DNA of 62,626 bases, the filler included, from Dimorphilus gyrociliatus (taxonomy: Eukaryota; Animalia; Annelida), in NCBI GenBank assembly GCA_904063045.1. It is 4 parts of 4 records of this genome, joined end to end, with 100 filler letters (N's around TTAATTAATTAA, not from the genome) between each part and the next. Parts side by side here need not be neighbours in the genome. Positions count along the whole stretch, not along the records: positions 1 to 27,385 come from CAJFCJ010000114.1; 3 more parts are not named here. One strand, written 5' to 3'. How positions within the stretch are numbered: the first letter of the stretch is position 1; each line of letters starts with the position of its first letter. The translations under genes were made by a program, and so were the position numbers. Under the pieces are notes generated by a model that did not search any database, was not told where the DNA came from, and was given only the letters and a program-made list of their open reading frames with translations. Shown piece after piece: positions 1 through 24,602 of the stretch.

Positions 1-628
1 ATGCTCTTGCTGGCAAAATCTATGCGTTTGCAAGTTATAACAATACTGGTTCTACTCGAACCTTTAAACAAATGTTTAAATTAAAAGGTTTATTCGCAAT
101 AATAATACTTAAGCAAGTAACAATATGAGAGTTCGATAGCAGAGTAGATAGTTTGTAAAGCAGGTTGCCAAATTACCAAACTGTCTTCCAATGTTGAGGA
201 GTAGATGGATGGTTCCAGTGGAGGTTGTTTCCAGATGATTTTCCCAGGTCCTTGGGTCCAGATGGAAGCTGCATGCCAAATGAGAATAATGAGGATTTAT
301 ATACTTTGAGGTTTGTCTCTGACATCCAATCATCACTTTACAGTTGCCAAATGTGTAGTTCATATTTATCTTTAGTAACAGGATGTTACAAGGTTCAACA
401 TTTAGGAAGGTTAATTGAATTATAACTTGGCCACACCCTAGGCAAGTTAATTAAATTATAACTTGGCCAAACCTTTATTGGTAATTAAAGATGAGCCTTC
501 AAGCTGACTAATCAGACTTATGTTTGGCCAATGTTATAGCATTTTCTTGCGTAGGTTTTAAGATGTACATGTATATGTTGCATAAAATAATAGAGTTCAA
601 GCATGTAAAATATAACCAAAGTTGTACA
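1..628 (-). repeat. 3' LTR of element 1 (last few bases cut by the window edge)
   Basis: Near-identical to 8513-9142. On the minus strand it begins TGTACAAC right after the PPT. Confidence 0.93.
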
Positions 629-644
629 ACTTCCCCCTTCTTGT
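629..644 (-). promoter_or_regulatory. Polypurine tract of element 1
   Basis: Minus strand ACAAGAAGGGGGAAGT directly abuts the TG start of the 3' LTR. Confidence 0.9.
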
Positions 645-657
645 GAAGATGAGTCCT

Positions 658-3071
658 TCATCTTGATTTAATGAGAATTACAGGTGGTTGTTCTTCTTCA
701 TTAGTTTGATGTTGACTAAAGCTACAACTTTGTTTCATTAGTTTTGGGTTTTCAGGAGAGTTATCTGTGCTCTCACTTGGGGTAGCAATTTCTTCTCTTT
801 GTTTTCTTCTACCAATAATATAGTTGAAAATGATGATACATACCATTGACACTACAATACTCAAACAAATATTTCGTATGATAACATAAAGTGTTTTCCC
901 AGGTTTATAGTACCAACTATGGAAAAACTTTTTAATTCCAGATAAATTGGGTACAATGCCATTTTTCTCTGCAACAGTGACCATGTTATCATACCTTGCC
1001 TGCTTCTGTTCAGTGAACTGATAACTTGCTTAATTTTTGAGTGCTGGTATGCAATATCTTCTTTACCCCATGGTGGAGTAGATCAGCTAATCTGGCAATT
1101 TCAATTTTTGGTTCAGAAAGGTGATTGTGGATATGTAACTGCATGGATTTTGCAGACACAGTGTGAAATCTGCATCCTCTTTCTGAATAATACACATATG
1201 TTTTGTCTTTCATTGGTTGGTTTCTTATAGGATTTAATGGGTTGTGAGTTGTTTTGTAGAATAACTTGTTAAACTTACACTCATTATAGGTAATCTCTTC
1301 AGGATTGACTTGCTGTAAAACATGAGTAACTGGTTCTACTTGGAAAAGCAGGTTGTTCATGGTGACAAGTAAAAATTGAGAACATTTGTTATTCTTTTTT
1401 ATCATGCTTAAGTCACAAACTACTTCTGTTGAGGCTATTGGTGAACATTGTTTAATTATAGCTAATTCTCCCATCTGACTACTGTGCATTCCCACTCATT
1501 TGTTAACACTGTGGTCAATTGAGGATCCAAATTTGCTAGTAATGCCATCATTCTGCTTCTTTGAACAAATTGATTGCAGAGAAGACTTGACAGCTGTTGG
1601 GTAAACTTTTTTAAATTCTTAAAATTTGAATCAATACCATGTAGTAAGGTAGATGTTTGGGCAGCTTCTCTCATTTCCAATGGGAATTTGTGGTATGGGT
1701 TTTTACTTATCTTATGTTTCAGTTTTGCTTCCTTCTTCATCTGCTTTTTAGCCATTCTCATGTGTAGAGTAAAATAAATTCCTTCATAGGTAATCTTAAA
1801 TTCTCTGGCTGGTGGTCCTTTATACCATATGCCCAATGTTGGTAATACCTTCTTTTTGATTCTTTTCTCACTGTATACATATTTTGAAATCGTGACAGAT
1901 TGTCTTGTTGCCTTGTCCAATTGACTGCTTGCAGCATTTCTTGGATATAATAGTTATCCAGCTCCCAGTAAGATGGACTAATGGGTTGTTGTAGATGATA
2001 TATCACAACTTCCTTGAGTGTGCCTTTATTTCTCATTAGTTTATACTTTGTGTTTGTTTCTCTGTACCATTGGTTAAGACTTGGTAAGGGGTTGTTTCGC
2101 TTGTATAGTATAATTTTTGTTCTTTAACTTTATTGGGATAGTTTAATAGTCGTTTTTTCTTCATTTTTGCCAATCTTCTGATATTGTAGCAAATTGTATA
2201 GGTGTTCCTTGCTTGTTTCCTGTATTAAACTCTGTTCCTCCAGTGGTACTAGTACTTTTGTTCCAGGACCACCAATTCCATCAATAACTTATCTTGATAA
2301 GGGATGTCCAGAATAGAATACCCTGGACAAGAATAGTGACCAGCAAATTTGATACAACTAATTCTGTTGCTAATTTTTATCCATGGTGATTGTTGCCCAA
2401 GTGTGTAATTATTCTTGAGGTTTCTAAAGACAATAATTGCCTCTTCTGTCTACAATAGGACTGCCCTGGTAAACAATCTTCCAGGTAGTCCAGATTAGTT
2501 GTAATTTTCATATTAGGAGGTTGCCAATATGCTTTGCCAAACTGGATAATTGTGGTGTATTCCAGCACCTTGGTGTTGTTGGCCATGTGTAGGCAGCAGG
2601 AAACTGATCTTGGTGGATCCAAGTGTTTCTTTTCACCATTAAAGGTTTTCCTTGAAAAGATCGTTTGTCTTTTACATCTGTCTGCATTGATCATGAGTTA
2701 CTTTGATAACTGAGTTAACAATCTCCTCTTCTTTGCTCCAAAGAAATAGTAAGTGTAAAAATTAGTTCTTAGATACACTTGACATTTTACTGCTCTTGTT
2801 TCAATTTCTTCCAAGTTCAATTCATAGATATCAGCTGTAATTGTCTTGGTTTCTTGTGATTCTATATTACAAGTTGGCTCATCTGCTAGATCAAATGCCT
2901 GGCTTGGTAGTTGGTTAGAACAAAAGTATAACGGTGGTTTAAATGTTAAGGTAATGTTTGCACTTGTAACATGGGACCTTGGTAGGATGGTTTTGGGACT
3001 GTTATTGAGTGGATGCAGCCACAGATCACCATTACAGTCATCACTAGTGGAAGCCACAACATCTGTTTCAT
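658..3071 (-). pseudogene. env: env-like class III fusion glycoprotein of element 1, split by several frameshifts
   Basis: ORF pieces 2698-3057, 2377-2694, 1758-2036, 1462-1920, 1010-1495 and 658-984 are colinear homologs of the element 2 env (FDLADEPTC, AVKCQV..NFYTYYFFGAKK). Signal peptide MKQMLWLPLVMTVMVICGC, TM ICLSIVVSMVCIIIFNYII. Confidence 0.85.
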
Positions 3072-3660
3072 GTTAGCTCTTCCTGTGTTGGCTATAGTTG
3101 AATGGTTGAAAATTTTGTGTTGTTGTTCCACTCTGATAGTTATTCCATCTTCTAACTCTATATATTGTGGTTCCACTTCTTGTTGGGAATCTAATTGTTC
3201 AGAGATGATTTTAGTCTCATCTAAAAATATGACTGACTCATTGTCTGTGTCACTTGTATTTTCTTTCTCATCTTGGGATGAATCTACCACTATGAGGGAC
3301 TCATTATCTGAATGGGTTATGTCAATAATTCACCTTCAATAATTATTGACTCATTATCAGAATGGGTTATATCAATAATTTCGCTTTCAATAATTATTGA
3401 CTCATTGTCTGAACTAGGTATTTCATCTTCTCTATCAGAGATAATGTTTGCCTCTGAATCTGTATTTTGATCCAGTTCATTATTTGTTTCTGTGTCATCA
3501 CTTTCAGATGAGCTTGAAGGTTCATTGAGACTGTAATTACTGTCTGTTTTGAAAGTATTGCTTGTGTCATAACCAGTATCAGAATTAGTAACTTCCATCT
3601 CTGAGTCATCACTATCTGAGCTTTCTGATGAAGAGTCATGCTGTCCCATCATGGCTATAG
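3072..3660 (-). other. Ser/Asp/Glu-rich low-complexity coding spacer with 51-nt (17-aa) tandem repeats
   Basis: ORFs 3317-3652 and 2946-3290. Unit SDNESIIIESEIIDITH at 3350-3400, and a copy at 3300-3349 lacking 1 nt. Confidence 0.75.
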
Positions 3661-3744
3661 TGACTTTGTTTAGTTGAGGTTGCCTTATTCTTTCAGCCAG
3701 GTTCCCTTTCTTCTATCAAATTTGAGAGAACACTGTTTAGCTTC

Positions 3745-4060
3745 AAAATGAGGTTTGCTCCACAGTTTGTAGGAAATCACAACTAAGTATTATTGCTATG
3801 TCTAGATTTTCCATAACTATAAATTCTTGTTCCATACTTTCTCCAGCAAATTGGATATTCAGCTTTACGCTTCTTTTTGCTTAAAGCTTTCCCATCAGCT
3901 GAAGTTATAATTGGTAAGCCAATTGTTTCTTTATCCATAATTGTAACATCCATTAACTTGATTTCTTTTTCAGTAATAAAGGATCTCAATGCTCCTGTGT
4001 CACACAAGGCAATGACTTCTTGGCCTTTTTGATTCTTCAAACGGAATTGGAAGTCATTTC
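3745..4060 (-). pseudogene. Second retropepsin-like aspartic protease domain downstream of integrase
   Basis: IALCDTGALRSFI in the integrase frame (DTG at 3993-4001). After one frameshift, KLNIQFAGESMEQEFIVMENLDIAIILSCDFLQ matches the C-terminal ILGxDFL motif. Confidence 0.8.
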
Positions 4061-4149
4061 GTCCTTCTACCTGAGAAAGATATTGGAGGTGTGTTATTTC
4101 CTTCTCCACTAGGTGAAAGATTGTTGTTGCTTCTTTCCCTGTTTCCAAC

Positions 4150-5130
4150 TTATTAGATTCATTGGCTAGTCTTAATCTGCTACCATGTACCAACTTGCAT
4201 GTATTATCATCCATTTGTATTTCATATATCCACTTTTGATGATTGACTTTTGTTATTCGGTATGGGCCTAACCATTTTAAAGAAGGGATTTTTGTTATTG
4301 CAATTCTTGCAGCATCAAATAGTACGTTTGTTTCAGGAGAGGTAGTATGCATTGTTACATCAATCAGTGTTCTTGTGCTGGTGCCAAAAAGAAGTTCCTG
4401 GGGTGGTAGTCTTGTACTTCCTACAGGTGATTGATTCAAAAATGCTTGAATCAAGGGTAGGTTTGCAACCCAGTTATGCTGATTTTCTTCCACCACTAAT
4501 TTATTGATTTCCTTCCTCACTTCTCTATTTCTTCGTTCAACTAGTCCATTGCTCTGGCTTCTATAAGCTGTTGTTTGGATTTTCTCAATACCTAATACCT
4601 TCATAAACTCTTTAAAAGCTTTACCAACAAAGTTTCTTCCTTGATCTGTCAACATTTGTTTTGGAATTCCAAAAATGGGGAAAAATCTGTTGAAAAGAAG
4701 GTTTGCAATTTCTTTACTGGTTTGCTGTTTGAGTGCATATAAAACTGTGTATCTACTGAAATGATCCACTATCACAAGTATGAATCTGTATGACTTAACC
4801 ATGGGTAAGGGTCCCATTATATCCATGGCCACCAACTCCATTGGTGATGCAGGGTGAAAGGTTTCTACCAAAGGGTATACTCTACTCCACCATTCATTTG
4901 TTCACACAAAGTGCAATCCTTTATTGAATTCTCAATCATAATCTTTAATTTTGGGTGCCAAAAGGTCTTTGTAATTATTTGTAATGTCATTCTGGGTCCA
5001 TGGTGATTGTGAATTTTATTTTTATGGAATTTAGGGAGCAGAGTTAGCATCAAATGGTCAGGTAAAACCAGAATGTTTCTTTCTTCAAGGATAATCCAGA
5101 TCATTTCCTTGTGAACAAACATCTCCATTA
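4150..5130 (-). pseudogene. pol: Integrase of element 1 (HHCC, DDE, GPY/F), frameshifted, with an internal deletion relative to element 2
   Basis: HNHHG..FWHPKL..CTLC; MDIMGP, TDQGRNF, SNGLVERRNRE; KWLGPYRI. Confidence 0.92.
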
Positions 5131-5648
5131 TGAAAGGTGTAAAAGTTCCAAAATAAGGATAGGTAGCTGACCATCCAGTGTTAAATATTCTTTAATTGAT
5201 TTTAAATTCACATCTTTTTCTTGCTCTGACTGTAAGTCAACAGAAGACAAATCAATTTTCTCTTCACTGTTATCACTGGTAGCTACAAAAGTTAACTCTG
5301 GTGTATGTTCATACTGTTCCATTTTAACTGAAATAGAGGGAGAATTCTCCTCTTTGATTCTTCCATGAATTAGCTCTTCAAATGTTACTTTCCTTGGGGG
5401 TGTATATTCTTCTAATCTTGTTAATGCATCTGCTCTATTTTTTTGTCCTGTCACATAGTTAATTGTAAATTTAAATCCATTAAAGCCATGACCCATTTTG
5501 CTGTGCTGACATTCAATTTGTTTTGCTTAAATGTTTGTACTAGACTCTGAGGTCAGTATATAAAAAGAATGGCTTGTCTTGAAGGTAATGTAAAAATTTC
5601 TTTACAACCCAGTAAACCCAAATGCTTCCTTTTGATAGGCTGCATATT

Positions 5649-8447
5649 TCATTTGATTATTGTTGAATTGTTTTGAAGGTAGGCAATGGGTTTCATTGTT
5701 TTCTTCCCATTCTCATCTACATAAACTTGTTCAAGAACTCCTCCTACAGCTACATTCGATGCATCTGTTGTTAAGTGAAAATCTTTAGCAAAATCAGGTA
5801 GTTGTAATACAGGAGGGTTAACTACTGCATCTCTCAACTTGAAAAATGATTGCTTGGCTTCCTCAGTCCATTGCAATTTATCCTTTTTCCCATGTAGTTT
5901 CATTAACATATACAGAGGTTTAGCTACTCTTGCAAAATCTTGTATAAATTTTCTGTAATAGCCACAAAACGCAACAAAGCTTAGTAGTGAATTTGCAAAC
6001 ACTGGTGGCTGTAAATTATATAATTTATCTGTCTTGGACTTATCTGTTTCAATCCCCTTTTCTGATACAATGTGTCCCAAGAATTGAACTTGTTCTTTCA
6101 AAAACACACATTTACTTAGTTTAATCTTAAAATTGTACTTTTGAATCTGTTGAAGAATGGTCTCCAATGCTTCCCAATGTTGGTCCAGCGACTTGGTAAA
6201 TATTATTATGTCATCAAGGTAGTTTAGGCACAAATGCTTTACATCCTTTAGCACAAATGAATTCATTACATAACTAAAATGAGGAGGGGCATTCGTTAAT
6301 CCAAAAGGCATCTTAATAAATTCAAACAAGCCAAAAGGTGTAATAAATGCTGTTTTAGACCTATCTTCTTTCTTGATGTTAATGTGGTGGTATGCACTTG
6401 TCAAATCCATTGTAGAAAAGAATTTATTTCCTCCTCCCAAATGGTCAAAAAGATCATCCTGATTTGGCAGTGGATACTTGTTTTTAACTGTCATTTTGTT
6501 TAGTTTTCTATAATCTACACACATTCGTAGACTACCTTCCTTCTTTCTTACAAAAACAATTGGTGAAGCCCAATTGCTCTTGCTTGGTTGAATAACTTTG
6601 CTTTTTACCAATTCAGCTATCTGTTGCTTACATTCTTCTTGTTTTTGAGGAGGCATTCTATATGGCCTTTGTCTATATGGTGTTGAACCTGGTTCAAGAG
6701 TTATTTCCAAGGGTGGTACCTCTGGATTGCCAATATCAAATCTGTCTTCTGCAATAGTTTCTTTATATTTTGCCAGAATTTGGGTAACTTTGTTCTTCAT
6801 CTCGGGATTTTCTTGTTCAATTGTTGTCTGAAGGGTATGTATTTGACTCTCATTCTTTTTCATAATAAGAGGAACTGGGTAAAATCCTTTGAAAGATAAG
6901 TGTTGTGTTCCAACAGGGTAATTCTTTTCTGTACCTGGCTGGAGTATAATCTGTCTCTTGCCAAAGTCAAGGGTAGCTCCATTTTGTTGTAGAAAGTCAC
7001 ACCCAATAATACATTGTTGTGTAATGATTTTGTTGATCAGAAAGCGTTGTTTAATAATCTTTCCATTAAAATAAAGTCTGAGAATGATTTCTCCACATAT
7101 CTCAATGCTATTTCCTGAAGCATCTCTAGCATTTTTCACAGTTTGTTCTGGGAAGGATGCTTTTCCTTGAACTTGTCTTAATACCTTTTTTGAAATGAAA
7201 GATCTGTCACTACCAGAGTCTATCAAGGCATCAAACTTAAAACCAGTATTAGTTTCAAATTGTCCAATAAATGTTGAAGCATTTCGCTCAGATTGTTTGC
7301 TTTGTAACAGCTGACAAGTGGATTCGTCACTATCTGAAAAACAGAGAATATCTTGAAGTTCGTCATTTTCTGACATGCTTTCATTGTCTACTGTTTCTAA
7401 TTTTTGTAGCTTAGGTTCCTCTTTCAGTATCGTCTTTGCTGGTTGATTTTTCTTATAATACCTGTTTGTTGTAGTTGGTGCATACTTTTGTACTTTTTGG
7501 CTTGAAAACTTTTCTGTAGTAGCATTTTTGTTGTCAGGTACATGCTTTCTATTCCAAAAATTTGGGGTTTCTGTAGAAGCATCTTTTCTGATTACCTGGG
7601 TCTTTTTGGTCTCTTTTCTTTGTTGAGTTTCCAATTTTGACACCATTGTGATCGGTTTTCTTTGAGTTAGTTTTAATGAAGTTTCTGCTTGCTTAGCAGC
7701 CTCATATAGTTCTGCCAATGTTTGACATTTAGGATGTAAGGTGTACACTAAATGTAGAATATCCTGTTGTAATCCTCTTTGTAAAACTTCCATCAGTTTT
7801 ATTTCTTTCATAGTTGCAAGCAATTGTGGTTCCATTGGTCTAGGTGGAGAAAACCTCTTTATCAATTTCTTTGCTCTATTAACAAACTGAACCACACTTT
7901 CGCCATTCATTTGCTTTAAGTTAAGCAATTTCTCTTGATACTCCAAAGGATCCAGATCAAATTCGTCATGGAGGGCTTTCCATATTTCCTCTACAGTAGG
8001 CTCTCCATCCAGAGCCAACACCAAATCCTTTGCAGGACCAGTTAAATAATCTAAAAGATTTGCTTTCACAACATCTTCTCCTATCCAACCATAAGCATAA
8101 CATGCCTGATTAAAGTCTTCTTTGAATTTTGAACACTCCTTGCTTCCATCATACAACTTGAGAATAGTTCTTTGAGGGCGGTCCCAAGCAGCCCTTAATG
8201 CTTGAATTACTGTTGTGATATCAACATTTGGGTTCTGTGCTGGGTGATGTGTCCCATCTCCATGATCTGTTGGAATTGTGATTTGATTTCTTTTCATTTC
8301 ACTCACCAATCTATCATAGTCTTCAATTAGTCTTTGTTGCCTTTCTGACATTCCTGCTGGATGAATTGTAATTGTTGGAGTTGCTGGGGTTGAAGGGTTA
8401 GAGTCTGTAACTGCCCCAGTGGTATTTACATTTTCTCCTTCTGCCAT
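5649..8447 (-). CDS. gag-pol: Gag-protease-RT-partial RNase H in a single frame (element 1)
   Basis: Gag LKLYDGS..FNQAC..GW, protease ALIDSGSDRSFI..CIIGCDFL, RT RMCVDYRKLN / MPFGL / YLDDIIIF, RNase H LTTDAS. Likely start is the ATG at 8447 (MAEGEN). Confidence 0.93.
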   Translation of the reverse strand: MAEGENVNTTGAVTDSNPSTPATPTITIHPAGMSERQQRLIEDYDRLVSEMKRNQITIPTDHGDGTHHPAQNPNVDITTVIQALRAAWDRPQRTILKLYDGSKECSKFKEDFNQACYAYGWIGEDVVKANLLDYLTGPAKDLVLALDGEPTVEEIWKALHDEFDLDPLEYQEKLLNLKQMNGESVVQFVNRAKKLIKRFSPPRPMEPQLLATMKEIKLMEVLQRGLQQDILHLVYTLHPKCQTLAELYEAAKQAETSLKLTQRKPITMVSKLETQQRKETKKTQVIRKDASTETPNFWNRKHVPDNKNATTEKFSSQKVQKYAPTTTNRYYKKNQPAKTILKEEPKLQKLETVDNESMSENDELQDILCFSDSDESTCQLLQSKQSERNASTFIGQFETNTGFKFDALIDSGSDRSFISKKVLRQVQGKASFPEQTVKNARDASGNSIEICGEIILRLYFNGKIIKQRFLINKIITQQCIIGCDFLQQNGATLDFGKRQIILQPGTEKNYPVGTQHLSFKGFYPVPLIMKKNESQIHTLQTTIEQENPEMKNKVTQILAKYKETIAEDRFDIGNPEVPPLEITLEPGSTPYRQRPYRMPPQKQEECKQQIAELVKSKVIQPSKSNWASPIVFVRKKEGSLRMCVDYRKLNKMTVKNKYPLPNQDDLFDHLGGGNKFFSTMDLTSAYHHINIKKEDRSKTAFITPFGLFEFIKMPFGLTNAPPHFSYVMNSFVLKDVKHLCLNYLDDIIIFTKSLDQHWEALETILQQIQKYNFKIKLSKCVFLKEQVQFLGHIVSEKGIETDKSKTDKLYNLQPPVFANSLLSFVAFCGYYRKFIQDFARVAKPLYMLMKLHGKKDKLQWTEEAKQSFFKLRDAVVNPPVLQLPDFAKDFHLTTDASNVAVGGVLEQVYVDENGKKTMKPIAYLQNNSTIIK

Positions 8448-8485
8448 ATTTACTTTCTCAAAACTTTTGAATAAACCAAAAGAAT

Positions 8486-8503
8486 ATCCTGTCGACTGCG
8501 CCA
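8486..8503 (-). promoter_or_regulatory. Primer binding site, tRNA-Ser-like
   Basis: Minus strand TGGCGCAGTCGACAGGAT, 4 nt after the LTR end. The plus strand ATCCTGTCGACTGCGCCA resembles the 3' 18 nt of metazoan tRNA-Ser. Confidence 0.82.
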
Positions 8504-8507
8504 AATT

Positions 8508-9142
8508 TGTACTGCTCTTGCTGGCAAAATCTATGCGTTTGCAAGTTATAACAATACTGGTTCTACTCGAACCTTTAAACAAATGTTTAAATTAAAATGG
8601 TTTATTCGCAATAATAATACTTAAGCAAGTAACAATATGAGAGTTCAATAGCAGAGTAGATAGTTTGTAATAGCAGGTTGCCAAATTACCAAACTGTCTT
8701 CCAATGTTGAGGAGTAGATGGATGGTTCCAGTGGAGGTTGTTTCCAGATGATTTTCCCAGGTCCTTGGGTCCAGATGGAAGCTGCATGCCAAATGAGAAT
8801 AATGAGGATTTATATACTTTGAGGTTTGTCTCTGACATCCAATCATCACTTTACAGTTGCCGAAATGTGTAGTTCATATTTATCTTTAGTAACAGGATGT
8901 TACAAGGTTCAACATTTAGGAAGGTTAATTGAATTATAACTTGGCCACACCCTAGGCAAGTTAATTAAATTATAACTTGGCCAAACCTTTATTGGTAATT
9001 AAAGATGAACCTTCAAGCTGACTAATCAGACTTATGTTTGGCCAATGTTATAGCATTTTCTTGCGTAGGTTTTAAGATGTACATGTATATGTTGCATAAA
9101 ATAATAGAGTTCAAGCATGTAAAATATAACCAAAGTTGTACA
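8508..9142 (-). repeat. 5' LTR of element 1 (635 bp, TGTAC...GTACA)
   Basis: 5-bp terminal inverted repeat. Differs from the left LTR at only a handful of visible positions. Internal direct repeat AATTATAACTTGGCCA occurs twice. Confidence 0.93.
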
Positions 9143-10420
9143 ACTTCCCCCTTCTTGTACAAGTTGTACAATGTCAATATGTTATTATGATATAACAAAT
9201 ATAGCATAAAAAAGGATAAGTAACCCTGATTCACTTGACCTTGACCTTTTACGAACCAAATAATCATTGCATTTTTTTAGATAAGAAGATGATAATGGAT
9301 ATTTGTGATAGTTAATAAACAATCCAGACAATGTTTAGAATGTGTTTTCAAGCAGTTTTATTATATCTTTAGCTCTCTCTCTCTCTCTCTCTCTGTGATG
9401 TTAGGCTTTCCTTGATGATAACTTCATCATCAATGCTATTGATATAGTATAAAAGTAAACAAATATAATTTAATCTGATTGTTAAAACAAACCTACAAGT
9501 AGTGGAATCATCTAAATAAACACTTTCACCATGCAATAGAGAATTCCCTCAAATGTACCCTTTAAAAATAGGTCATGTGCAAAAGTCATTAATCTTTTTA
9601 AAGATTATTGATGTTCAAGATTAGAATATAGATGAAATATAAATGAATCTCTTTACAAAATCATTGAAAATTTAATGAATTGACTTGTTCAAACATTAAA
9701 AGGTATGTTTGTCAGAGTATGAATACCAATTGTTCAAGACAATATTCAATTATTAATGAATACTTTGGTTGATAGTTGACTTAGTAATTGTCAATTTGAC
9801 AAGCAGAATGCCAGTATTTCATCCAAAGAATATTTATTGAGTAAATGAGTTGTTTAGTTTCCTATATATTTAGTAATTCAGAAAAAATTACATAAAATGT
9901 AAGAACTTTGAGCAGGAGTTGAATGGAATATAGAAGGGAAAATTAGACAAAGGACAGCATTATGCTGTCCTTTTTTTTTAATAAATCCCATAAGTTATTC
10001 ATAATAAAATATGCAGATGGTAAATATTAATGCATTTGGATATCTAAAATAGTCAACTGTAATGAGTGTAGTTTAAATCGTTTAATGAATATCTATTGGA
10101 GGGCAGTCTGAGTATGATTTAATTAAAATTTATAAAAAGCTACTCTCTGTGTACTTTGTTGTATTGTAATTGTAGGAATTTCTGGTTCGTCACAACTGTA
10201 ATTGTCCTTTCCAATCATTTACCAACTTGCCAAAGTACTGGTCCAAATAGAACCTTTAAAGTTCGTCCACAAATAGTCTAACAAAGGCAATTTCGGTAGA
10301 AATTGATTAACAAAACACCAGTATTTCGTCCAAAGAATATGTATTGAGTAAAATGAGCTTCTAGTTCTAAACAAGCTAGTTTAAACAACTAGCTGACGGT
10401 TAGAAAACTGAACTATCAAC

Positions 10421-11088
10421 TGTTAATTTCGTAGGGTTTATATACTCTTTTAAGGGTTGATAGTTCACAAATTTCAATGTTCACAAAAACAAAAGTAACA
10501 TTTAAAGACAAAGAAAAGTTCTAAATATGGTCATGTTTTTATTGTTTTCCTCTTCTAAATAATAGTTGAATTTCGAAGGTTGGAGAGTTGCATAAGATGT
10601 AACAATTTTAGTAGGACAAGTCCAACAATCAAGAAAACATGTAGATTGTATATTTGACCGTTTTTATATTCTACCTTAATAATGATATTCAATTGATTGA
10701 GTTAGTAAATTTAGCATCAGCATATAAGGAGGAAGTATATCTGATTAATGCATGTTAAAAAGAACAGTATTGTGTATACAATACTGTTGAATAGTGAATA
10801 TAATCTAAACTTAGAATTTAAGCATAATTGATAATTAATTGAACTAGTTTTAGTTCGAAATCATAAATTTATGGATTAATAAATTGTAATATTAATGCTA
10901 GGTTGCAAATAGCAAATATTCTTTATATAATTCAATAGGTTTTATTACTGCATAATGTGTATGCACTGCCCTATGCGAAACTAGGTCACTACTGCTTATC
11001 TTTATCAGTGCTATCTGCATAGTACAATACTGGTTCAATACTACTTCTCTATTGTAGAATATAGCTGACGAATGTATGTGTACAAACA
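10421..11088 (-). repeat. Putative 3' LTR of element 2 (left boundary uncertain, 10395-10421)
   Basis: Begins TGTTTG right after a PPT on the minus strand. A candidate ...AACA end at 10421 gives TGTT..AACA termini and a length similar to LTR1. No second copy is present to confirm it. Confidence 0.6.
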
Positions 11089-11100
11089 TCCCACTCCTTT
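11089..11100 (-). promoter_or_regulatory. Polypurine tract of element 2
   Basis: AAAGGAGTGGGA followed by TG. It overlaps the env stop codon TAA. Confidence 0.8.
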
Positions 11101-13528
11101 AAGACCTTGCTTCCACGAAAGGTCTAGGACTTGTGACAATTATGTTATCACCACTTTTTCTGAACATAGGATAATTTTGCAGTTCTATTTCTTCTGATTC
11201 AGCTGTTGGAGCTGAAGGTAATCTTTTTGTTTTTGTCAGTAGTTTAGACAGTCTGGTAAATTGAACTCTTTTCAGTTTTTTCTTCCAAATAAAGTAGATG
11301 AAGAATCCATTTCCAATCAAGAGTATAATTGGCAGAAGTGTGTCTATTAGTATTTTGAAAGGTTTTCTTATCCATGAAGAAAATAGATGTTGTGTTGGTG
11401 ACAAGGCTGCATCAAATCCTAAATCATTTGCAAAGTTAATATGCTCTCTATGCTTAGTCAAAGTATCCTGTATGTATTCCAAAACTTGTTGTATCTGATA
11501 ATGTTTCTTGCCCACATCTTCTTTTATACCTAGTTGTAATAATTCTGTGAGTCTGACAACTTCTAGTTTTGGTTCTTCAATTTGACTGTTGATTTTCATT
11601 CTGATTGATTGTGCTGCTGCTGTTTGGAACCTGCATCCTTTCCTTGTATAATAGATAAATGTCTTCTTGTCAGAATGTATGGCATATTGATTTTGTTCTG
11701 CATCCAAAGGATTTTTCTTGATCTTGAAGAGATGCTGAGTTTGGTCACATGTACCATATCTTATGTCTTCTTTTGTGATGTGGTAAGCATGATGAAGTAT
11801 TGGATCAATTGAGAATAGGAGATCTTTATATTTGATCAGAAATTCTTTTGAACATAATCCATTTTTTGTTATAATTGTTGTGTCACAAACTACTTGAACA
11901 GTTTTTAATTCTGTACATGTATTGAGGGTTGTTAGATCTCCTAACCATGTACTATGGGTTCCATGTTTAGATCCAAGTATTGTTGGTAGTTGAGGTGATA
12001 GTGGTGTAAGTAGGGCTATCATCTTGTTTCTCATGATAAATTCTTTGCATAAAAGTTGTGAAACTTGTTTAAAAACTGTTTGTAAATTTTGAAAATTTTT
12101 GTCAATATTGTTTAGTAGTGCAGCTGTTCTTATAGCATCTTTTATATTTATTTGGTGTGATTCTGGAATCTCTATGTTTTCTAATTGTTTCCTCTTCCAT
12201 TTGTGATTTATTGGTTTTCTTTGTAAAAGTGTATATTTGCCATTTTCTGTATGAATTTGAAATTGTGTATCTTTTGGGCTTTGATACCAAATGTTCATGT
12301 TTGGCAGTGGGTTGAAAGTAACTGGTTTTTTGTCCAATTCAAAATCTTGTGATCTTACTAGTCTGGCAGGTTTTAGCTTTGTTGTTTTCAGCATTTTTAG
12401 TATGTATTTGTTGTGAATATCCCAGATGTCTGGAGAAATAATTTCTTTGACAAACCAAGTCCTCACTAATGGTGTTGCATGATTTTTTATCAGCATATGG
12501 TAGGTTTTGTCACCATCTCTATACCAATCATTATATGTTAAAATATCTTGTATTTCTGTGACATTGGCCTTTCTTAGTGATGATTTCTTTCCAATATATT
12601 TCTCCAATCTATTAACTTCTTTATTTGAAATGATCTTGTATTTTGTATCCTCTATTATTTTATTGTCAGCATAATTAGAATTTGTAAGATCAGTTCTAAG
12701 TAAGTCATATTCTTTCTGGGGTACCAATACTCTGGTACCAGGACCACCATATCCTTTGATATATCTGTCTTGGTAAGGTAAATCCATTATTGCATAGTTG
12801 GGGCAGGAAAAATATCCTCCAAGTTTTACGCATTCCACATTATGGGAAACTATTTTCCATGGTGAAACATGGCCTAGAAGACTTTGACCTTTTTCTGGAT
12901 TAAATATAATGATTGAATCCAAAGTTCTACAAAATTTTTGTTTAATAGAACAGTCTTCTAAATATTCCAAATTTGTGGTTATTTTATCTTGACTTGGATT
13001 CCAATAAGCCTTGCCAATTTGAAGGATTGTTGTAAATTCTTCCACCACTGTGGTTCTTGGCCATTTGTAATTTGGTCCTTTGTTTTCATTATACATAAGA
13101 AGTTTGCCTTTTTCAATTAGGTTTTGTCCATTTAAGGTTTTGTGTGTGTATAGCATTGTTCTGCATTGTTTTTCACTTAAGGCAAGTGTTTGTTTTTCAA
13201 TTCTGTGTTTCTTTGCTCCAAAAAAGTAATGAGTGTAGAAATTGATTCTTCTTTTCACTAAACACTTGACAGCTTGAATTGCCAAATTGTCAGCTTTAAT
13301 TTCATAGATGTTAGCTACAATTTTGATCATTTGTTTAGTTTCAAAGGTACATACTGGTTCATCTGCCAAATCAAATGATTGGTGTACTTGTTGTCCTTGA
13401 CAAAACTGCACTGATGGTAGCATTCTTACAGTTATGTTTGCTTTTGTTATGGATACATTTGCTTGGACCAAGTTTAAACAGCATATTGCTAACAGTGTAT
13501 AAATTATTGATCCTCTGATGGGAAGCAT
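11099..13528 (-). CDS. env: Env portion (about 809 aa): type I membrane glycoprotein, class III fusogen-like
   Basis: Signal MLPIRGSIIYTLLAICCLNLVQA; C-x-YFFGAK-x-C and C-x6-C pattern similar to rhabdovirus G; TM LLPIILLIGNGFFIYFIW followed by KKKLKR. Confidence 0.8.
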   Translation of the reverse strand: MLPIRGSIIYTLLAICCLNLVQANVSITKANITVRMLPSVQFCQGQQVHQSFDLADEPVCTFETKQMIKIVANIYEIKADNLAIQAVKCLVKRRINFYTHYFFGAKKHRIEKQTLALSEKQCRTMLYTHKTLNGQNLIEKGKLLMYNENKGPNYKWPRTTVVEEFTTILQIGKAYWNPSQDKITTNLEYLEDCSIKQKFCRTLDSIIIFNPEKGQSLLGHVSPWKIVSHNVECVKLGGYFSCPNYAIMDLPYQDRYIKGYGGPGTRVLVPQKEYDLLRTDLTNSNYADNKIIEDTKYKIISNKEVNRLEKYIGKKSSLRKANVTEIQDILTYNDWYRDGDKTYHMLIKNHATPLVRTWFVKEIISPDIWDIHNKYILKMLKTTKLKPARLVRSQDFELDKKPVTFNPLPNMNIWYQSPKDTQFQIHTENGKYTLLQRKPINHKWKRKQLENIEIPESHQINIKDAIRTAALLNNIDKNFQNLQTVFKQVSQLLCKEFIMRNKMIALLTPLSPQLPTILGSKHGTHSTWLGDLTTLNTCTELKTVQVVCDTTIITKNGLCSKEFLIKYKDLLFSIDPILHHAYHITKEDIRYGTCDQTQHLFKIKKNPLDAEQNQYAIHSDKKTFIYYTRKGCRFQTAAAQSIRMKINSQIEEPKLEVVRLTELLQLGIKEDVGKKHYQIQQVLEYIQDTLTKHREHINFANDLGFDAALSPTQHLFSSWIRKPFKILIDTLLPIILLIGNGFFIYFIWKKKLKRVQFTRLSKLLTKTKRLPSAPTAESEEIELQNYPMFRKSGDNIIVTSPRPFVEARS

Positions 13529-16312
13529 TCCACCATTTGTTTGGTGTTTCCTTACTGTCACTGTGTTAACTGTTATAGGTTGTTTGTTAGCTAGTCTTAG
13601 TCTACTAGCATGATAGAATTTTCTTTTATCTGCCAATATTTGTAATTCATACAAACATTTTGTAGTATCTGTAGCAGTTACAAGATATGGTCCACTCCAT
13701 TTGCTTGTATTTATTCTGTTCATTCCTTGACCAATGTTTTCATTTCTTATGTGTACCCAATCACCAATTTTGTAAGTTGGAGGTTTTCTTGTAATAGCTT
13801 TATTAACTCTATCTCTATATTCCTTCTTTTTTAGAACAGATTTGCAAAGTGCTGTTGCTCTAATTTCTTCAAGTTCATGTTTTCTATCAAATAAGAATTT
13901 TGTTGTTGGTTCTAATCTTGGAACTTCCATTAACAGGTCTAAAACATTTCTATTCGTCAATCCAAATAATATTTCATGTGGGGTTTTGCCAGTGCTTCCA
14001 ACTGGAATTTGATTTAAACATGTCTGAATTAATGGTAACTGTCTTGTCCAATCTGTTAATTGTTCCATAACTACATGTTTATGTAGTGCTCTACGAATTT
14101 CCAAATTCTTTCTTTCTACCATTCCATTACTTTGGCTATGGAATGCTGTTGTTTTAATTTTTCGTATTCCCATTGATGTCACCATTTCTGTAAAGATTTC
14201 CCCAAGAAAATTCCTTCCTTGATCTGTGAGAATTTCTTCTGGGATACCAAATATTGGGAAATAGTTGAAAAACAAATGTTTAGAAATTTCCTCAGCTGTT
14301 TGAGTTTTTAGAGGGAATATGTTGGTAAATCTGGACATGTGGTCTATAATGACAAGTATATACTTGTAAGAATCATGTCCAGTCAGAGGTCCCATTATGT
14401 CCATAGCTATTCTTTGCATTGGTAAAGTTGGGTGAGGTGTTTCAACCAACAGATGTTTGTTGCCTGGTGCTCTTAATTGCTCACAAAATTCACAACTCTT
14501 TATGTGATCTTTAATTGTTTTCTTTAGCTTTGGGTGCCAGAAAGCTTGCTCCAAAGTGTGAATTGTTATGTCTACACCATAGTGCTCAAATAGTTGATGT
14601 TGATGAATTTGTCCAAGTAAGTTGGTTAGAGTTGATAGTGGAATTACAAGTAGTGGTTGACAGCCATTTAGATACCATACAAGGTCTTCTTTTACAAACA
14701 TAGATTCAATAAAGTTTCCATATTCATTCAAAGACCCATTATCAATGTTTTCTCCTTCCAATTTGTCTACAACTTTCATTAGTGGAGTATCTAATACTTG
14801 TTCTCTATAGAAGTTTATTTCAACTGGTGTGATTTTTAGTTTCATAATCTGGGCTTGGATTTCAGTTATGTCTTCATCATAATCATTGTCTAGATTGTCA
14901 TCTAAACAATCATCTAATTCTTCTAAGTCCTCTGTATCAATATAAAAGCATTTAAGCATATCCTTTCTTTCTGCTAATTGGGGAACTGTATTGCCATTTT
15001 GTTTTTCTTCATTTAATCTTTCCTTAAGTAAATTACGAAAATCAATTACTTCATCAGTTTCACCAATTCTTGATATCCAGTCTGCTCTATTAGTTCTTCC
15101 TGGTATGTATATTATTTCAAAATCCATATCCATAAGTGCCATCACCCATTTAACAGTACTTGTATTCAGTTTGTTTTGTACAAATGTTTGTACCAAATTT
15201 TGGTGATCAGTGTAGAGAAAAAATTTCTTATACTGTAGATAGTGGGAGAATTTTTGTACTGCCCAATATACTGCAAAAGCCTCTTTTTGATAAGCTGCAT
15301 ATCTTAGTTGTGTATTGATTAGGAGCTTGGAAGCAAAAGAAATTGGTTTTCTTATTTTCTTTCCATCTTCTTCCCATTCTTGTTCTAGAACTGCACCAAC
15401 TGCATAATTAGAAGCATCTGTTGTTAAATAGAATGATTTAGTAAAGTCTGGCAGTTGAAGGATTGGGGGCTCTGTCATTGCATTCCTTGGTGTTTCATAA
15501 GCTTCCTCTGCTTTTTTTGTCCATTTCAGTTTTTCTGTCTTTTGGTGTACTTTTAATAATTCTCTCAAAGGTTTTGTGATTTTTGCAAAATCTTTAACAA
15601 ATCTTCTATAATAACCACAAAATGCCACAAAACTCAACAGAGTATTTGCAAACATAGGTAATTTGGCATCTTTTATTTTCTGAATCTTTTCAGGATCAGT
15701 TTCAATACCATTCTGTGTAATTCTATGACCAAGGAATTGAACTGATTCTTGTAAGAATGCACATTTGCTCAGTTTAATTCTGAAGTCTTTTTCCTTGATT
15801 CTTTCCATAAGTTTCTGTAGAGCTACAAAGTGTTCTTCCAATGTTTTGGTAAAAACTATAACATCATCCATATAATTAATGCAGAAGTTTTCCAATCCAT
15901 TAATAACAAAATTTGCCATGATATAGCTGAAGTGTGAAGGTGCATTAGCCAAACCAAATGGCATGCGGTTGAATTCAAATAAACCAAATGGTGTAATAAA
16001 AGCAGTTTTCTCCTTATCTTCTTCTTTAATTGGAATATGATGAAATGCACTTGTTAAATCCAATATAGAGAAATATTTGTGGCCTCCTCCAAGCTTATCA
16101 AATAAATCTTCCTGATGTGGGATTGGATAACAATTCTTTTTTGATTGCTTGTTAAGTTTTCTGTAATCCACACACATTCTTAATGTTCCTTCTTTCTTTT
16201 TCACAAAAACAATGGGTGAAGCCCATTGGCTTTTGCTTGCTCTAATTAGACCATTTTCCAATAATCCATTTAATTGATCCCTGCATTCCTGCTGTTTGTT
16301 GGGTGGCAATCT
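11099..16312 (-). CDS. pol-env: Element 2 RT-RNaseH-integrase-Env continuous ORF, 5'-truncated (no gag, PR or 5' LTR)
   Basis: 1736-aa ORF with YMDD, TDAS..KEA..TDH, HHCC, D-D-E and GPY, then an internal signal peptide, a Cys-rich ectodomain and a C-terminal TM, with no stop codon between them. Confidence 0.95.
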   Translation of the reverse strand, partial: RLPPNKQQECRDQLNGLLENGLIRASKSQWASPIVFVKKKEGTLRMCVDYRKLNKQSKKNCYPIPHQEDLFDKLGGGHKYFSILDLTSAFHHIPIKEEDKEKTAFITPFGLFEFNRMPFGLANAPSHFSYIMANFVINGLENFCINYMDDVIVFTKTLEEHFVALQKLMERIKEKDFRIKLSKCAFLQESVQFLGHRITQNGIETDPEKIQKIKDAKLPMFANTLLSFVAFCGYYRRFVKDFAKITKPLRELLKVHQKTEKLKWTKKAEEAYETPRNAMTEPPILQLPDFTKSFYLTTDASNYAVGAVLEQEWEEDGKKIRKPISFASKLLINTQLRYAAYQKEAFAVYWAVQKFSHYLQYKKFFLYTDHQNLVQTFVQNKLNTSTVKWVMALMDMDFEIIYIPGRTNRADWISRIGETDEVIDFRNLLKERLNEEKQNGNTVPQLAERKDMLKCFYIDTEDLEELDDCLDDNLDNDYDEDITEIQAQIMKLKITPVEINFYREQVLDTPLMKVVDKLEGENIDNGSLNEYGNFIESMFVKEDLVWYLNGCQPLLVIPLSTLTNLLGQIHQHQLFEHYGVDITIHTLEQAFWHPKLKKTIKDHIKSCEFCEQLRAPGNKHLLVETPHPTLPMQRIAMDIMGPLTGHDSYKYILVIIDHMSRFTNIFPLKTQTAEEISKHLFFNYFPIFGIPEEILTDQGRNFLGEIFTEMVTSMGIRKIKTTAFHSQSNGMVERKNLEIRRALHKHVVMEQLTDWTRQLPLIQTCLNQIPVGSTGKTPHEILFGLTNRNVLDLLMEVPRLEPTTKFLFDRKHELEEIRATALCKSVLKKKEYRDRVNKAITRKPPTYKIGDWVHIRNENIGQGMNRINTSKWSGPYLVTATDTTKCLYELQILADKRKFYHASRLRLANKQPITVNTVTVRKHQTNGGMLPIRGSIIYTLLAICCLNLVQANVSITKANITVRMLPSVQFCQGQQVHQSFDLADEPVCTFETKQMIKIVANIYEIKADNLAIQAVKCLVKRRINFYTHYFFGAKKHRIEKQTLALSEKQCRTMLYTHKTLNGQNLIEKGKLLMYNENKGPNYKWPRTTVVEEFTTILQIGKAYWNPSQDKITTNLEYLEDCSIKQKFCRTLDSIIIFNPEKGQSLLGHVSPWKIVSHNVECVKLGGYFSCPNYAIMDLPYQDRYIKGYGGPGTRVLVPQKEYDLLRTDLTNSNYADNKIIEDTKYKIISNKEVNRLEKYIGKKSSLRKANVTEIQDILTYNDWYRDGDKTYHMLIKNHATPLVRTWFVKEIISPDIWDIHNKYILKMLKTTKLKPARLVRSQDFELDKKPVTFNPLPNMNIWYQSPKDTQFQIHTENGKYTLLQRKPINHKWKRKQLENIEIPESHQINIKDAIRTAALLNNIDKNFQNLQTVFKQVSQLLCKEFIMRNKMIALLTPLSPQLPTILGSKHGTHSTWLGDLTTLNTCTELKTVQVVCDTTIITKNGLCSKEFLIKYKDLLFSIDPILHHAYHITKEDIRYGTCDQTQHLFKIKKNPLDAEQNQYAIHSDKKTFIYYTRKGCRFQTAAAQSIRMKINSQIEEPKLEVVRLTELLQLGIKEDVGKKHYQIQQVLEYIQDTLTKHREHINFANDLGFDAALSPTQHLFSSWIRKPFKILIDTLLPIILLIGNGFFIYFIWKKKLKRVQFTRLSKLLTKTKRLPSAPTAESEEIELQNYPMFRKSGDNIIVTSPRPFVEARS

Positions 16313-18529
16313 GTCTGGTCTTTGTCACAGAATTATGGATGTGTAAAAGAATCATTGGAGAAAGCAAAAACTGATGATAACATTATGATGGATTGCTCCT
16401 GTCCTGTACCATGTGACCAAATTATTTATGAACCTAATCTATCATTTTCAGCAATATCAGAATTTGCTGCTGATAAAATGTTATATGCAAATTTAAAGAG
16501 AATGAAAAAGTTGACAAATGATTATCATGAGATATTAGAAGTTAAAGAAAGGAAAATTAATAAAAACTTCAATCTAAATAGACAATTTATTTCTCCTTTT
16601 ACAACAAAAACTATTTTACTTTTACAAAATATTAAAAATATTTTCAAATTATTTTCAACTTTTGATAAAAATATTTCAAATTTTGAAAATTATATTCAAA
16701 CGCTTAATAATGATGTTAATACTGTTGAATATAACTTTTCTAGAATGAAAAATGCCCTAAATTCATCAAATATCGCTCAAATTGTAAAAATAATTAATGA
16801 GCTCTCCCCATACAGTTTTATGGAAAAATTATTTGGACCAAGTGAAAGGAAGAAGAATGTTATCCTTCAAAATCTTAACACTTGTCTAAAAAACTTATGT
16901 GAAATGGATAAAATGGAAACAGGTTGCATTAAATTTATGGAACATTTTCACCTGAGTGTCTACAAGAAAGCTGATCAAAATTTCCATCAATTTTGGATTG
17001 TTGTAACAGAAATGGCAAATATGCTATATGGAGATTTCAATGGAATAAGAAGTTTACAGATATTCCATCTAAAGGAAATAGAGAGATTATTTGAAATAGA
17101 TATTAATAATAATAATAGTTCAGCAGCATTAAAATTCAATGAAACTTGTAATCAATTCTATATTAACTTGAAAGATATGACAAAATTAATAGCTGACAAT
17201 ATTGTAAATAAAAATGACAGTTATGTTGTTATTGGTACCAAAATTCAAACTTTTATCAAAACCCTTTTCAATATTGAAGATAATTTTAATAATATCAATT
17301 TTCAATCCCTTTGCCTATTTAGTAAAAGAGATTTGGTATTTAATGATATTTTATTAAAAATCAATCAAATGAAATCATTGATTTCAATCAATTATTCAGT
17401 ATTTAGAGAATTTCACAACAGGATTAAACCAATTAGAATAATTTATGAAAATGTTCTAAATAGAACTCAAACATTCCAATCATATTTAGAAGAGAATTCA
17501 TCAACTAAAAAGCTTAATTTATCAAATACTTTTTTTTTGGATGATTTACTTCACAATATAAGAAGTTTAATGAGTTTCTGTGATGAGTTGAAGTCTGACT
17601 ATACAATATTCTGGAATAGTAAATATCAAATATACACAGCTGTAGTTGACATTGAACTTTTAGTTGAAAAAGATATTATATGGCCTTTGCCAAAAAAAGA
17701 TAGGAATGATGAAAATATTTCATATAAACAAATGAAAGATTTACAATCTTTATATTCTCAGAAAAAAAATGAATATAATGTTAATCATAATTGCTCAACA
17801 GAAAATTTACACATATTTTTTGAACATGTTTGGAGTGATTGTTACTACTATTTCTCTCATCAGATGCTAAATTACACATTTAAATTTCCTAATATCTCTC
17901 AAAAAGTATTTTATGAAATTTTATATGATTACAATAATCTTCAAGCTTTTATGTATGAATTTTCCAAAATTTCTAGGATAGATAAAGAATTTTTCCTGTA
18001 AGATTTCTCTCTCTCTCTTTGTTACATTTTGTTTTTAATTCAAATTTTCAAATAAATATCAACAGAAAGAATTTTGCAAAAGTTAATGTTTTCTACAATG
18101 AAATGAGTTATCAAAAGATCACTCAACATGAAAAATTTGGTTTTCTATCCCTCCTATCCGAAGTTGGTGGTTTTATGGGACTTCTCTTGGGAGCTTCTGT
18201 CATCACACTTATTGAATTTCTAGAATTTTTTGCTTGGAAGGTACAGAGAAGAAAATTATTGAATTGTTCAAAAACTATGAAAGTTTTTAACTGTGATTTT
18301 TTAATTTGTATTTCAGTTATTCAAATCAATTTCAAATAGAAGGAAGCCATACTCAGAAGATGCTTATTCTACACAAGACACTGCATAACTTAGTCCTACC
18401 CATAAATATTTATATATATATATATATGGAGAAAATTGAAGCTTGGAAAATATTTCACAAAACAGATATACACCTAGAAGTAGTGACATATTGATATTTA
18501 GAAACTAGATATAAAGGAAATTTAGAAAG
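15573..18529 (+). repeat. Left arm of a 2957-bp inverted duplication
   Basis: Reverse complement of 21646-24602 (mirror rule x maps to 40175-x). The ORF track shows identical mirrored proteins. Confidence 0.97.
16313..18388 (+). CDS. 3' half of a DEG/ENaC (ASIC/FaNaC-like) channel gene, copy 1, 5' exons absent
   Basis: CSCPVPCDQIIYEPNLS thumb, KNFAKVNVFY, SEVGGFMGLLLGASVITLIE (TM2, GAS filter). Introns 17998-18065 and 18241-18316, stop at 18388. Confidence 0.88.
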
Positions 18530-20870: not shown

Positions 20871-21786
20871 TTTTGCAGATGAATGATACTTTGCAGATAG
20901 ACTGACTTTTACATCAAGAGGAAATAATAAATTATCTAGTATTTTTCTAACTACTTTAAACTGCAATTTAAGCTTGTCATACTTAATTATATTTTACTAT
21001 TAGTAATTTAGCAGACACTCAAACTCTTAACATTTCTAACTATTAAAAAATTATAGTTTTATGCTATAGAGAAAATTGGATTGTTATATATGTATTTAAA
21101 GTTGTTTAGGATGAATAAATATCATATTGATGTGTGCTTGGACAATATTATTCAAGTTGAACATAAATTCATAATCTGAATGTTTAAAATATGATAAATT
21201 TATAAATAAAACAAAATGTCAATCAGTTGGTGATTGGCAGATCTTGACCCTTATAAAATTCTTTGTTAACAGAATGATATCCATTTTATAATTTTATACC
21301 AATAGAATATGTATTGGGTAAATGAGTTCCAAGTGCAGTCTATGTTTAGAGAGAAGAGAGTCATGAACTTTGGAAGTGTATTCCCTTTCATACACTCACC
21401 AAAGCTTGCATTCATTTGGTCAAAGGTTTTCAAAGATAAGAGTTAACTATTTCATATTTCATATGTAACAAAACATTCTTTTGAACAAGAAAGACTATTA
21501 CATACATTATGTAACAAACCCTAACCCTTTGTGTAAACTATAACATGTTTAATGCGTATGTTTTCAATGCGGTATGTTTCTCTGCCAATTCTATTGTGGC
21601 TCCATCTATTTTTCTTACAGATTCTCTTAGATATAGAATAAAAGTCTTTCTAAATTTCCTTTATATCTAGTTTCTAAATATCAATATGTCACTACTTCTA
21701 GGTGTATATCTGTTTTGTGAAATATTTTCCAAGCTTCAATTTTCTCCATATATATATATATATAAATATTTATGGGTAGGACTAAG

Positions 21787-23862: not shown

Positions 23863-24602
23863 AGATTGCCACCCAACAAACAGCAGGAATGCAGGGATCA
23901 ATTAAATGGATTATTGGAAAATGGTCTAATTAGAGCAAGCAAAAGCCAATGGGCTTCACCCATTGTTTTTGTGAAAAAGAAAGAAGGAACATTAAGAATG
24001 TGTGTGGATTACAGAAAACTTAACAAGCAATCAAAAAAGAATTGTTATCCAATCCCACATCAGGAAGATTTATTTGATAAGCTTGGAGGAGGCCACAAAT
24101 ATTTCTCTATATTGGATTTAACAAGTGCATTTCATCATATTCCAATTAAAGAAGAAGATAAGGAGAAAACTGCTTTTATTACACCATTTGGTTTATTTGA
24201 ATTCAACCGCATGCCATTTGGTTTGGCTAATGCACCTTCACACTTCAGCTATATCATGGCAAATTTTGTTATTAATGGATTGGAAAACTTCTGCATTAAT
24301 TATATGGATGATATTATAGTTTTTACCAAAACATTGGAAGAACACTTTGTAGCTCTACAGAAACTTATGGAAAGAATCAAGGAAAAAGACTTCAGAATTA
24401 AACTGAGCAAATGTGCATTCTTACAAGAATCAGTTCAATTCCTTGGTCATAGAATTACACAGAATGGTATTGAAACTGATCCTGAAAAGATTCAGAAAAT
24501 AAAAGATGCCAAATTACCTATGTTTGCAAATACTCTGTTGAGTTTTGTGGCATTTTGTGGTTATTATAGAAGATTTGTTAAAGATTTTGCAAAAATCACA
24601 AA
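23863..24602 (+). pseudogene. pol: Duplicated RT fragment of element 2
   Basis: Identical to the start of the element 2 ORF except YMDDI versus YMDDV. It stops at the MULE terminus. Confidence 0.93.

Follow-up and report, generated by a model that had tools for sequence, protein, structure and literature searches.

Pol and a predicted class III fusogen share one open frame in a truncated gypsy element from the annelid Dimorphilus gyrociliatus

We analysed a window of 62,626 nucleotides (the whole stretch of DNA, filler included), joined from four records of the genome assembly of the annelid Dimorphilus gyrociliatus (GCA_904063045.1). Its minus strand carries a 5'-truncated copy of a Ty3/gypsy retrotransposon, here called the focus element, in which a single stop-free frame of 1741 codons extends from 16324 to 11099 (stop codon at 11099-11101). 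In this order, the frame encodes reverse transcriptase (RT), RNase H (RH), integrase (IN), a hydrophobic signal-like segment, a predicted class III ectodomain and a transmembrane (TM) helix. We consider it probable that the envelope protein (Env), a predicted class III fusogen, is released from the Pol polyprotein. As a discovery this is modest, since the family, the host and the type of env are already in print. What is new here is that, in a diverged subfamily, the methionine that could start Env separately (Met933) is lost while the frame and the hydrophobic core are kept, which at the level of sequence favours release of Env from Pol. The focus element is a clean test case for how a gypsy element would produce a membrane glycoprotein at the end of Pol. 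Its features are listed below (aa, amino acid position in the 1741-codon frame; LTR, long terminal repeat; gB, glycoprotein B).

15128..16324, minus strand: RT and RNase H of the Ty3/gypsy Pol, 5' end cut at ~16325 (Pfam)
13589..14638, minus strand: integrase with zinc finger, catalytic core and presumed GPY/F-type tail (Pfam and motif positions)
13529..13588, minus strand: stop-free linker from integrase to signal-like segment (frame; 0-gap contigs of runs X1-X6)
13460..13528, minus strand: predicted internal signal with Met933, core aa 940-950 and predicted cleavage after aa 955 (hydropathy; cleavage site by eye)
12866..13288, minus strand: class III fusion domain, ~140 aa, candidate loops near 13228 and 13063 (model, structure and profile matches)
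11915..12163, minus strand: gB-like core helix, then a conserved motif (profile matches; low model confidence)
11285..11353, minus strand: predicted C-terminal TM anchor, then a basic cytoplasmic tail of ~60 aa (hydropathy)
11089..11101, minus strand: env stop codon overlapping the polypurine tract (sequence)
10150..11088, minus strand: 939-bp 3' LTR of the focus element, with TG...CA ends (contig loose ends)

Pfam searches of the focus Pol recovered RVT_1 (aa 41-202, E 2e-34), RT_RNaseH (aa 293-399, E 4e-30), Integrase_H2C2 (aa 563-617, E 1e-10) and rve (aa 634-721, E 2e-9), the domain order of RT, RNase H and integrase by which Ty3/gypsy elements (Metaviridae) are recognised. This agrees with the gypsy-type Pol proposed in a first-pass annotation made from the sequence alone, whose interval of 11099..14450 leaves out RT and RNase H (to 16324) and the 3' LTR (10150-11088). 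The integrase ends in a tail motif at aa 908, which we take to be of the GPY/F type, and Met933 lies 25 residues downstream. Over windows of 11 residues, the hydrophobicity of the protein peaks at aa 940-950 (Kyte-Doolittle 2.7); over windows of 19 residues it peaks at aa 1658-1676 (2.18), the TM candidate. Between them lies an ectodomain of ~700 residues with 14 cysteines and three N-glycosylation sequons, at its very start and in the middle; past the signal segment, Env is about 785 aa long. Hydropathy and frame thus bear out the predicted signal-like segment, ectodomain and TM anchor after the integrase, the arrangement beside a gypsy pol that characterises HSV/gB-type envelopes (HSV, herpes simplex virus).

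The focus copy is cut at ~16325, within the start of RT, and lacks gag, protease and 5' LTR; it cannot move by itself. At the breakpoint it abuts an amiloride-sensitive sodium channel gene, namely its 3' half; in loose ends of run X1 contigs the upstream part of pol and further element sequence continue past 16325. The copy retains its 3' LTR and polypurine tract, and a primer-binding site (PBS) was seen in the run X1 loose ends. Loose contig ends cluster at 10150 and at 11084-11086, marking the LTR boundaries, and one X1 contig runs past 10150 into the PBS. At the start of this LTR (10936-11169), contig depth in X3 and X4 is several hundred times that of the element body, a value that does not reflect copy number. 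The X3 and X4 loose ends carry what is presumably transposase adapter sequence, and the high depth may stem from many solo LTRs or from open chromatin.

The chance that the 21-codon linker between integrase and signal segment is open and in frame is about 6%, and public contigs were therefore compared across the junction. Contigs from six runs (of DNA or of unstated kind, none recorded as RNA) were aligned to the window; X1-X4 belong to one study, which may be the source of the window, and X5 and X6 to two other studies. Seven contig records from the six runs and three studies span the junction gap-free: X1 record 5, X2 record 1, X3 record 13, X4 record 20 and record 4 (one and the same contig), X5 record 7 and X6 record 14. 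X5 record 7 differs from the window at 48 positions in 270 nt and X6 record 14 at 72 in 466 nt, and by these sequences the two represent a subfamily that is 15-18% diverged (82-85% identical). Of 40 listed differences, the 38 carried by X6 (out of its 72) were classed by codon, and two X5-only rows were dropped. The 38 fall in 35 codons, 20 of them changed synonymously and 15 non-synonymously, with no stop, and 25 of the 38 are at third codon positions; a stop among the other 34 X6 differences, which include those at 13545-13717, is formally conceivable. Run X5 also contains decayed copies, with a 2-nt insertion near 13689 and a 1892-nt internal deletion.

One explanation of the fusion would be an assembly error or a private loss of a stop in a single dead copy, and the focus copy is indeed truncated, in rearranged surroundings that include an inverted duplication of 2970 bp. 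The seven 0-gap records argue against this: the junction is not an assembly error, because contigs span it without a gap, including two from a subfamily diverged by ~15% that was recovered by two other studies. We regard this explanation as largely refuted already and barely credible. The frame is conserved in the diverged subfamily, and the in-frame fusion of integrase and env, as the first-pass annotation had described it, is real and well supported as sequence, with neither a gap at the junction nor a stop among the listed X6 differences.

To place the element, we looked up ten of its relatives; two were named, both of them gene models of D. gyrociliatus. One, DgyrCDS14407, matches the focus Pol in three ungapped blocks with 140/150, 269/305 and 65/72 identical residues (93%, 88% and 90%). 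Martin-Duran et al. 2021 (PMC7854359) describe Dingle, a gypsy-family element and the commonest element of the D. gyrociliatus genome, in which a protein downstream of the integrase matches gB of cytomegalovirus and HSV-1 by HHpred (P > 99). Chary and Hayashi 2026 (PMC13524379) tabulate 1512 env-bearing gypsy elements, 221 of them carrying an HSV/gB-type env (ENV_HSV), across animals. These include one row for D. gyrociliatus, Annelida_Polychaeta_Dgyr_errantivirus_1 (hereafter Dgyr_errantivirus_1), with LTRs of 630-635 bp and the PBS TCGACTGCGCCA four bases from the LTR. The first-pass annotation was thus right in assigning the element to a non-insect invertebrate, given the Pol siblings in the annelid, but its claim of novelty falls to the published Dingle family with its gB-like env and to the 221 tabulated elements.

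The window itself contains a second, related element, element A, which carries a homologous env.

2..9158, minus strand: element A, gag-protease-RT, integrase and homologous env, with several frameshifts (Pfam, LTR and PBS comparison)

Its two LTRs (99.2% identical, ~635 bp), PBS, polypurine tract, gag and protease are all present, and in the 12-nt PBS, the 4-nt gap between PBS and LTR and the LTR size it equals Dgyr_errantivirus_1 as tabulated. Focus element and element A are 55% identical over RT-RH, 44% over integrase and 24-44% over env, and the X1 contig shows the LTR of the focus element backed by the same PBS. Because of this shared PBS, the 939-bp LTR and the divergence from element A, we place the focus element as a sister subfamily of the published element. 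By sequence comparison the subfamily is new; its family and its type of env have been described before, and it likely belongs within the Dingle family.

As to how Env would be made, the polyprotein route is favoured because Met933 is lost in the diverged subfamily while frame and hydrophobic core persist. In the contigs of that subfamily the Met933 codon does not encode Met, nor is a Met created by any of the 20 codons that differ in aa 927-955. Across aa 939-954, 8 of 11 changed codons are synonymous and the remaining three still encode hydrophobic residues. In element A, the env signal segment is likewise preceded by 86 open codons. Once RT-RH-IN have been made in the cytosol, the hydrophobic stretch of aa 940-950 would serve as the internal signal by which the ectodomain is threaded into the endoplasmic reticulum. 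Host signal peptidase would then free Env as a type I glycoprotein anchored by the TM helix, and the protease of the element or an intramembrane protease may free integrase from the signal remnant. Env trimers on particles would fuse membranes via two loops, allowing intact copies to pass between cells. All steps past translation are inferred.

Several observations weigh against this route. As 38 of the 72 X6 differences are listed, a new upstream Met may exist in the diverged subfamily; aa 955, which is predicted to be the -1 residue, is changed in it too; and the signal peptide with its cleavage site is predicted from hydropathy and by eye. The same element and fusogen could instead produce Env mainly from a spliced or internally started mRNA with a start of its own, the open linker being a tolerated read-through. 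In Drosophila gypsy, Env is known to come from a spliced mRNA, and insect errantiviruses do likewise. In the window copy, Met933 stands directly ahead of the hydrophobic core of a textbook-looking signal segment, in a fair start context, and AG dinucleotides occur upstream of it. The pyrimidine tracts of these candidate acceptors are weak (9/15 pyrimidines for the best), the next Met of the window copy (aa 968) falls beyond the hydrophobic core, and a start at Met933 is hard to reconcile with its loss where frame and core are kept. The published sister element is labelled GAG-POL in PMC13524379, which can be read as suggesting a separate env frame. Taken together, we regard a separately started Env as rather unlikely, and release from the Pol polyprotein as the better reading.

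The supplements of PMC13524379 label five elements POL-ENV or GAG-POL-ENV, three with ENV_HSV and two with ENV_F, and from these labels we infer single frames. A search of its main text, as accessible, found no discussion of pol-env fusion, a single frame or splicing, so that the layout is labelled in the supplement and left undiscussed in the text. Literature searches on gypsy pol-env fusion with signal peptidase found no prior account, and those on follow-ups of Dingle found nothing relevant beyond PMC7854359, in a coverage that omits most subscription journals.

To identify the fold of Env, sequence, profile and structure searches were combined. The env sequence alone gave 0 matches in Pfam and PDB sequence searches, and a scan of 1.84 billion representative sequences yielded 11 relatives. 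Word-indexed protein searches returned 1 of 4711 and 1 of 6335 candidates and, among proteins of fused length, 0 of 6077; none of them thus turned up a protein record for a fused relative of full length. Scans of viral contigs gave no relative of env or of P0011. A profile built from these relatives matched rabies G over the fusion domain as best PDB match (E 0.002-0.03) and gB of the Epstein-Barr virus (EBV) type, residues 440-515, over the central helix region (E 0.014-0.15). Of 12 family members, three match Pfam Rhabdo_glycop_FD (best E 2e-5) and three match Glycoprotein_B (best E 1.5e-4). In these profile searches, rhabdovirus G was matched solely over the fusion domain, and the C-terminal part matched gB. 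A search of the ESM Atlas placed Monjiviricetes fusion clusters first (0.96), followed by rhabdovirus G and gB (0.94-0.95); with the C-terminal part of env, the best value was 0.86, a lead.

A fold of the single env sequence reached a pLDDT (predicted local distance difference test) of 33. An AlphaFold model was built from a 12-sequence alignment; it is confident only over approximately residues 50-200 (pLDDT 70-89), with a mean pLDDT of 52 and a pTM (predicted template modelling score) of 0.32. The fusion domain in this confident part matched gB with Z 9.7 (136 residues aligned, root-mean-square deviation (rmsd) 4.0). Mokola G came level with Z 9.6 (rmsd 5.6 over 180 residues), and rabies G (Z 8.6) and vesicular stomatitis virus G (Z 8.5) followed. 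In VIA, the top 8 of 48,161 representative chains were all class III. Foldseek against PDB gave gB in 37 of 38 rows among the matches listed, the other being Bourbon virus GP; its rank order cannot decide between gB and G, because the template modelling scores are low (0.13-0.21) and gB is over-represented in PDB. The best 50 matches in BFVD, most of them of the Monjiviricetes type, comprised gB, entomopoxvirus proteins and negative-strand RNA virus G proteins.

The fusion domain has the class III fold, with hydrophobic loops and conserved cysteines, and Env as a whole is predicted to be a class III fusogen. Phe, Gly and Trp of both candidate loops are kept in all eight aligned relatives, 11 ectodomain cysteines are kept in every aligned relative that covers them, and C90, C123 and C194 are kept in 8/8. 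The two fusion-loop candidates of the first-pass annotation lie at hairpin tips in the model and align with the rabies G loops in the profile search, and its choice of class III over baculovirus F is upheld by the structure matches. A class I Env of the baculovirus F type was accordingly rejected, the confident part of the model being a class III fusion domain. With ~140 residues, the fusion domain is as compact as that of rabies G (137) and lacks the ~65 extra residues of gB domain I, whose fusion domain has about 205. It is colinear with rhabdovirus G (model residues 58-199 with rabies G 52-188, and 46-254 with Mokola G 38-249).

The resemblance to rhabdovirus G claimed from the sequence alone therefore stands for the fusion domain (Rhabdo_glycop_FD in 3/12, Mokola G Z 9.6) and fails for the C-terminal half, which is gB-like. 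A complete rhabdovirus G was rejected as identity for Env, which at ~785 aa has a C-terminal half that is gB-like in profiles and not of the rhabdovirus type; rhabdovirus G is near 500 aa in overall size. Env thus combines a G-like fusion domain with a gB-like remainder. The assignment of the latter rests on weak profile matches (E 0.014-0.03), because the C-terminal half of the model is mostly below pLDDT 50. This weighs against the class III reading of the whole protein. A long central helix is predicted in the monomer model, at a pLDDT mostly below 50, and its profile match to EBV gB is weak.

The compact fusion domain might suggest that a gypsy element captured a rhabdovirus G gene fairly recently and in this lineage alone. 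Its colinearity with rhabdovirus G without the additional gB residues, and rabies G as best PDB match of the profile, would fit such an event. Against it, identity to any viral G is only 8-16%, the C-terminal half is gB-like, and env and pol are alike in base and third-position composition. In PMC13524379, moreover, errantivirus gB-type ENVs from ctenophores to insects share a short domain I-II: 198-247 aa in 17 rows among those listed, compared with 226-235 in rhabdovirus G and 319-335 in herpes gB, and 286 in one cnidarian row. Therefore, as far as that table goes, the compact fusion domain is general to the known group, and by eye the loop motifs recur in its springtail row. We consider a recent capture very unlikely; the lineage-specific acquisition of a mononegavirus fusogen advanced in the first-pass annotation is likewise not supported, given the presence of this env type in the 221 gypsy elements tabulated across animals.

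The nearest viral look-alikes of Env are the Monjiviricetes glycoproteins (chu-, nyami- and xinmovirus-type). These and rhabdo-like proteins of Pfam PF24664 share a compact fusion domain and a gB-like helix with it, but differ in that neither env nor its 11 relatives match PF24664 and identity is about 8-16%. In line with this, the methods of PMC13524379 state that the HSV/gB-type glycoprotein resembles Chuviridae envelopes. The label "gB-type" conceals a fusion domain of rhabdovirus size, which bears on the origins of class III fusogens. A stronger joint claim is possible, though we lean against it: that the subfamily would make its fusogen only by excision from the Pol polyprotein, having for it neither a separate start codon nor a separate spliced mRNA, and that herpes gB would be less close to the "gB-type" envs of invertebrate retroelements than G of negative-strand RNA viruses is. 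These envs would be the missing link from rhabdovirus G to gB and perhaps sister or donor to the viral proteins. The residual value of the focus element lies in the evidence on polyprotein processing and in how near these envs stand to G of negative-strand RNA viruses.

Among published elements, Dingle (PMC7854359) is alike in being Ty3/gypsy with a gB-like protein downstream of integrase, and its D. gyrociliatus sibling Pol is 88-93% identical; the likeness is by description and not by Dingle sequence, and the accessible account mentions neither an env-pol fusion nor a rhabdovirus-sized fusion domain. The HSV/gB-type errantiviruses of PMC13524379 share the ENV_HSV type of env, and Dgyr_errantivirus_1 shares the PBS and the 4-nt gap; the focus element differs from this one D. 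gyrociliatus row in its 939-bp LTR and from that row's GAG-POL label. Chuvirus-like env genes have been reported on BEL/Pao elements (Anakin; bioRxiv 10.1101/2020.02.15.950899), unlike the focus element, which is gypsy. In Atlas virus of Ancylostoma ceylanicum (Belpaoviridae; PMC9094657), Env ends one stop-free Gag-Pol-Env frame; it resembles the focus element in an Env that closes a single frame and differs in being BEL/Pao with a class II, phlebovirus-like Env.

In element A, the interval from integrase to the env signal is filled by a second aspartic-protease-like domain with a DTG motif (3783-4030, minus strand; Pfam gag-asp_proteas weak, E 0.05) and an acidic Ser/Asp/Glu spacer (3075-3712, minus strand). 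The end of the spacer (3263-3114) is 59% identical over 54 aa to the stretch preceding RT in DgyrCDS14407. Domain and spacer may form a module acquired by recombination, or supply a protease in position to separate Env from Pol. The 5' LTR of element A is preceded (9143-9158) by a copy of the polypurine tract of the 3' LTR, so that the repeat extends 16 bp past the LTR. A table of PMC13524379 assigns a chromodomain to the Dgyr_errantivirus_1 family.

The intervals 15560-18529 and 21646-24615 form the 2970-bp inverted duplication, with 8 mismatches. It takes in the RT fragment and, of an ENaC/degenerin-like gene, the 3' half, and is either a true fold-back rearrangement or an assembly artefact. 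On the plus strand at 16274-18339, ENaC/degenerin exons (Pfam ASC) lie on either side of a 575-codon open frame that has no Pfam match and looks like a very large insertion in the extracellular domain of the channel. The 5' half of the gene is missing where the focus element abuts, and contig depth of the aligned runs is nearly nil on the host-gene side beyond 16325. Decayed LTR-like fragments at 28984-29103, 49537-49652, 57387-57593, 38366-38442 and 46943-47092 are 74-84% identical to the LTRs of the focus element or element A. The window further encodes an FLYWCH-MULE transposase (25438-26676, minus strand) and host frames with SRCR, LDL-receptor A and F5/8 type C domains (32325-36221 and 41312-42334, both plus strand).

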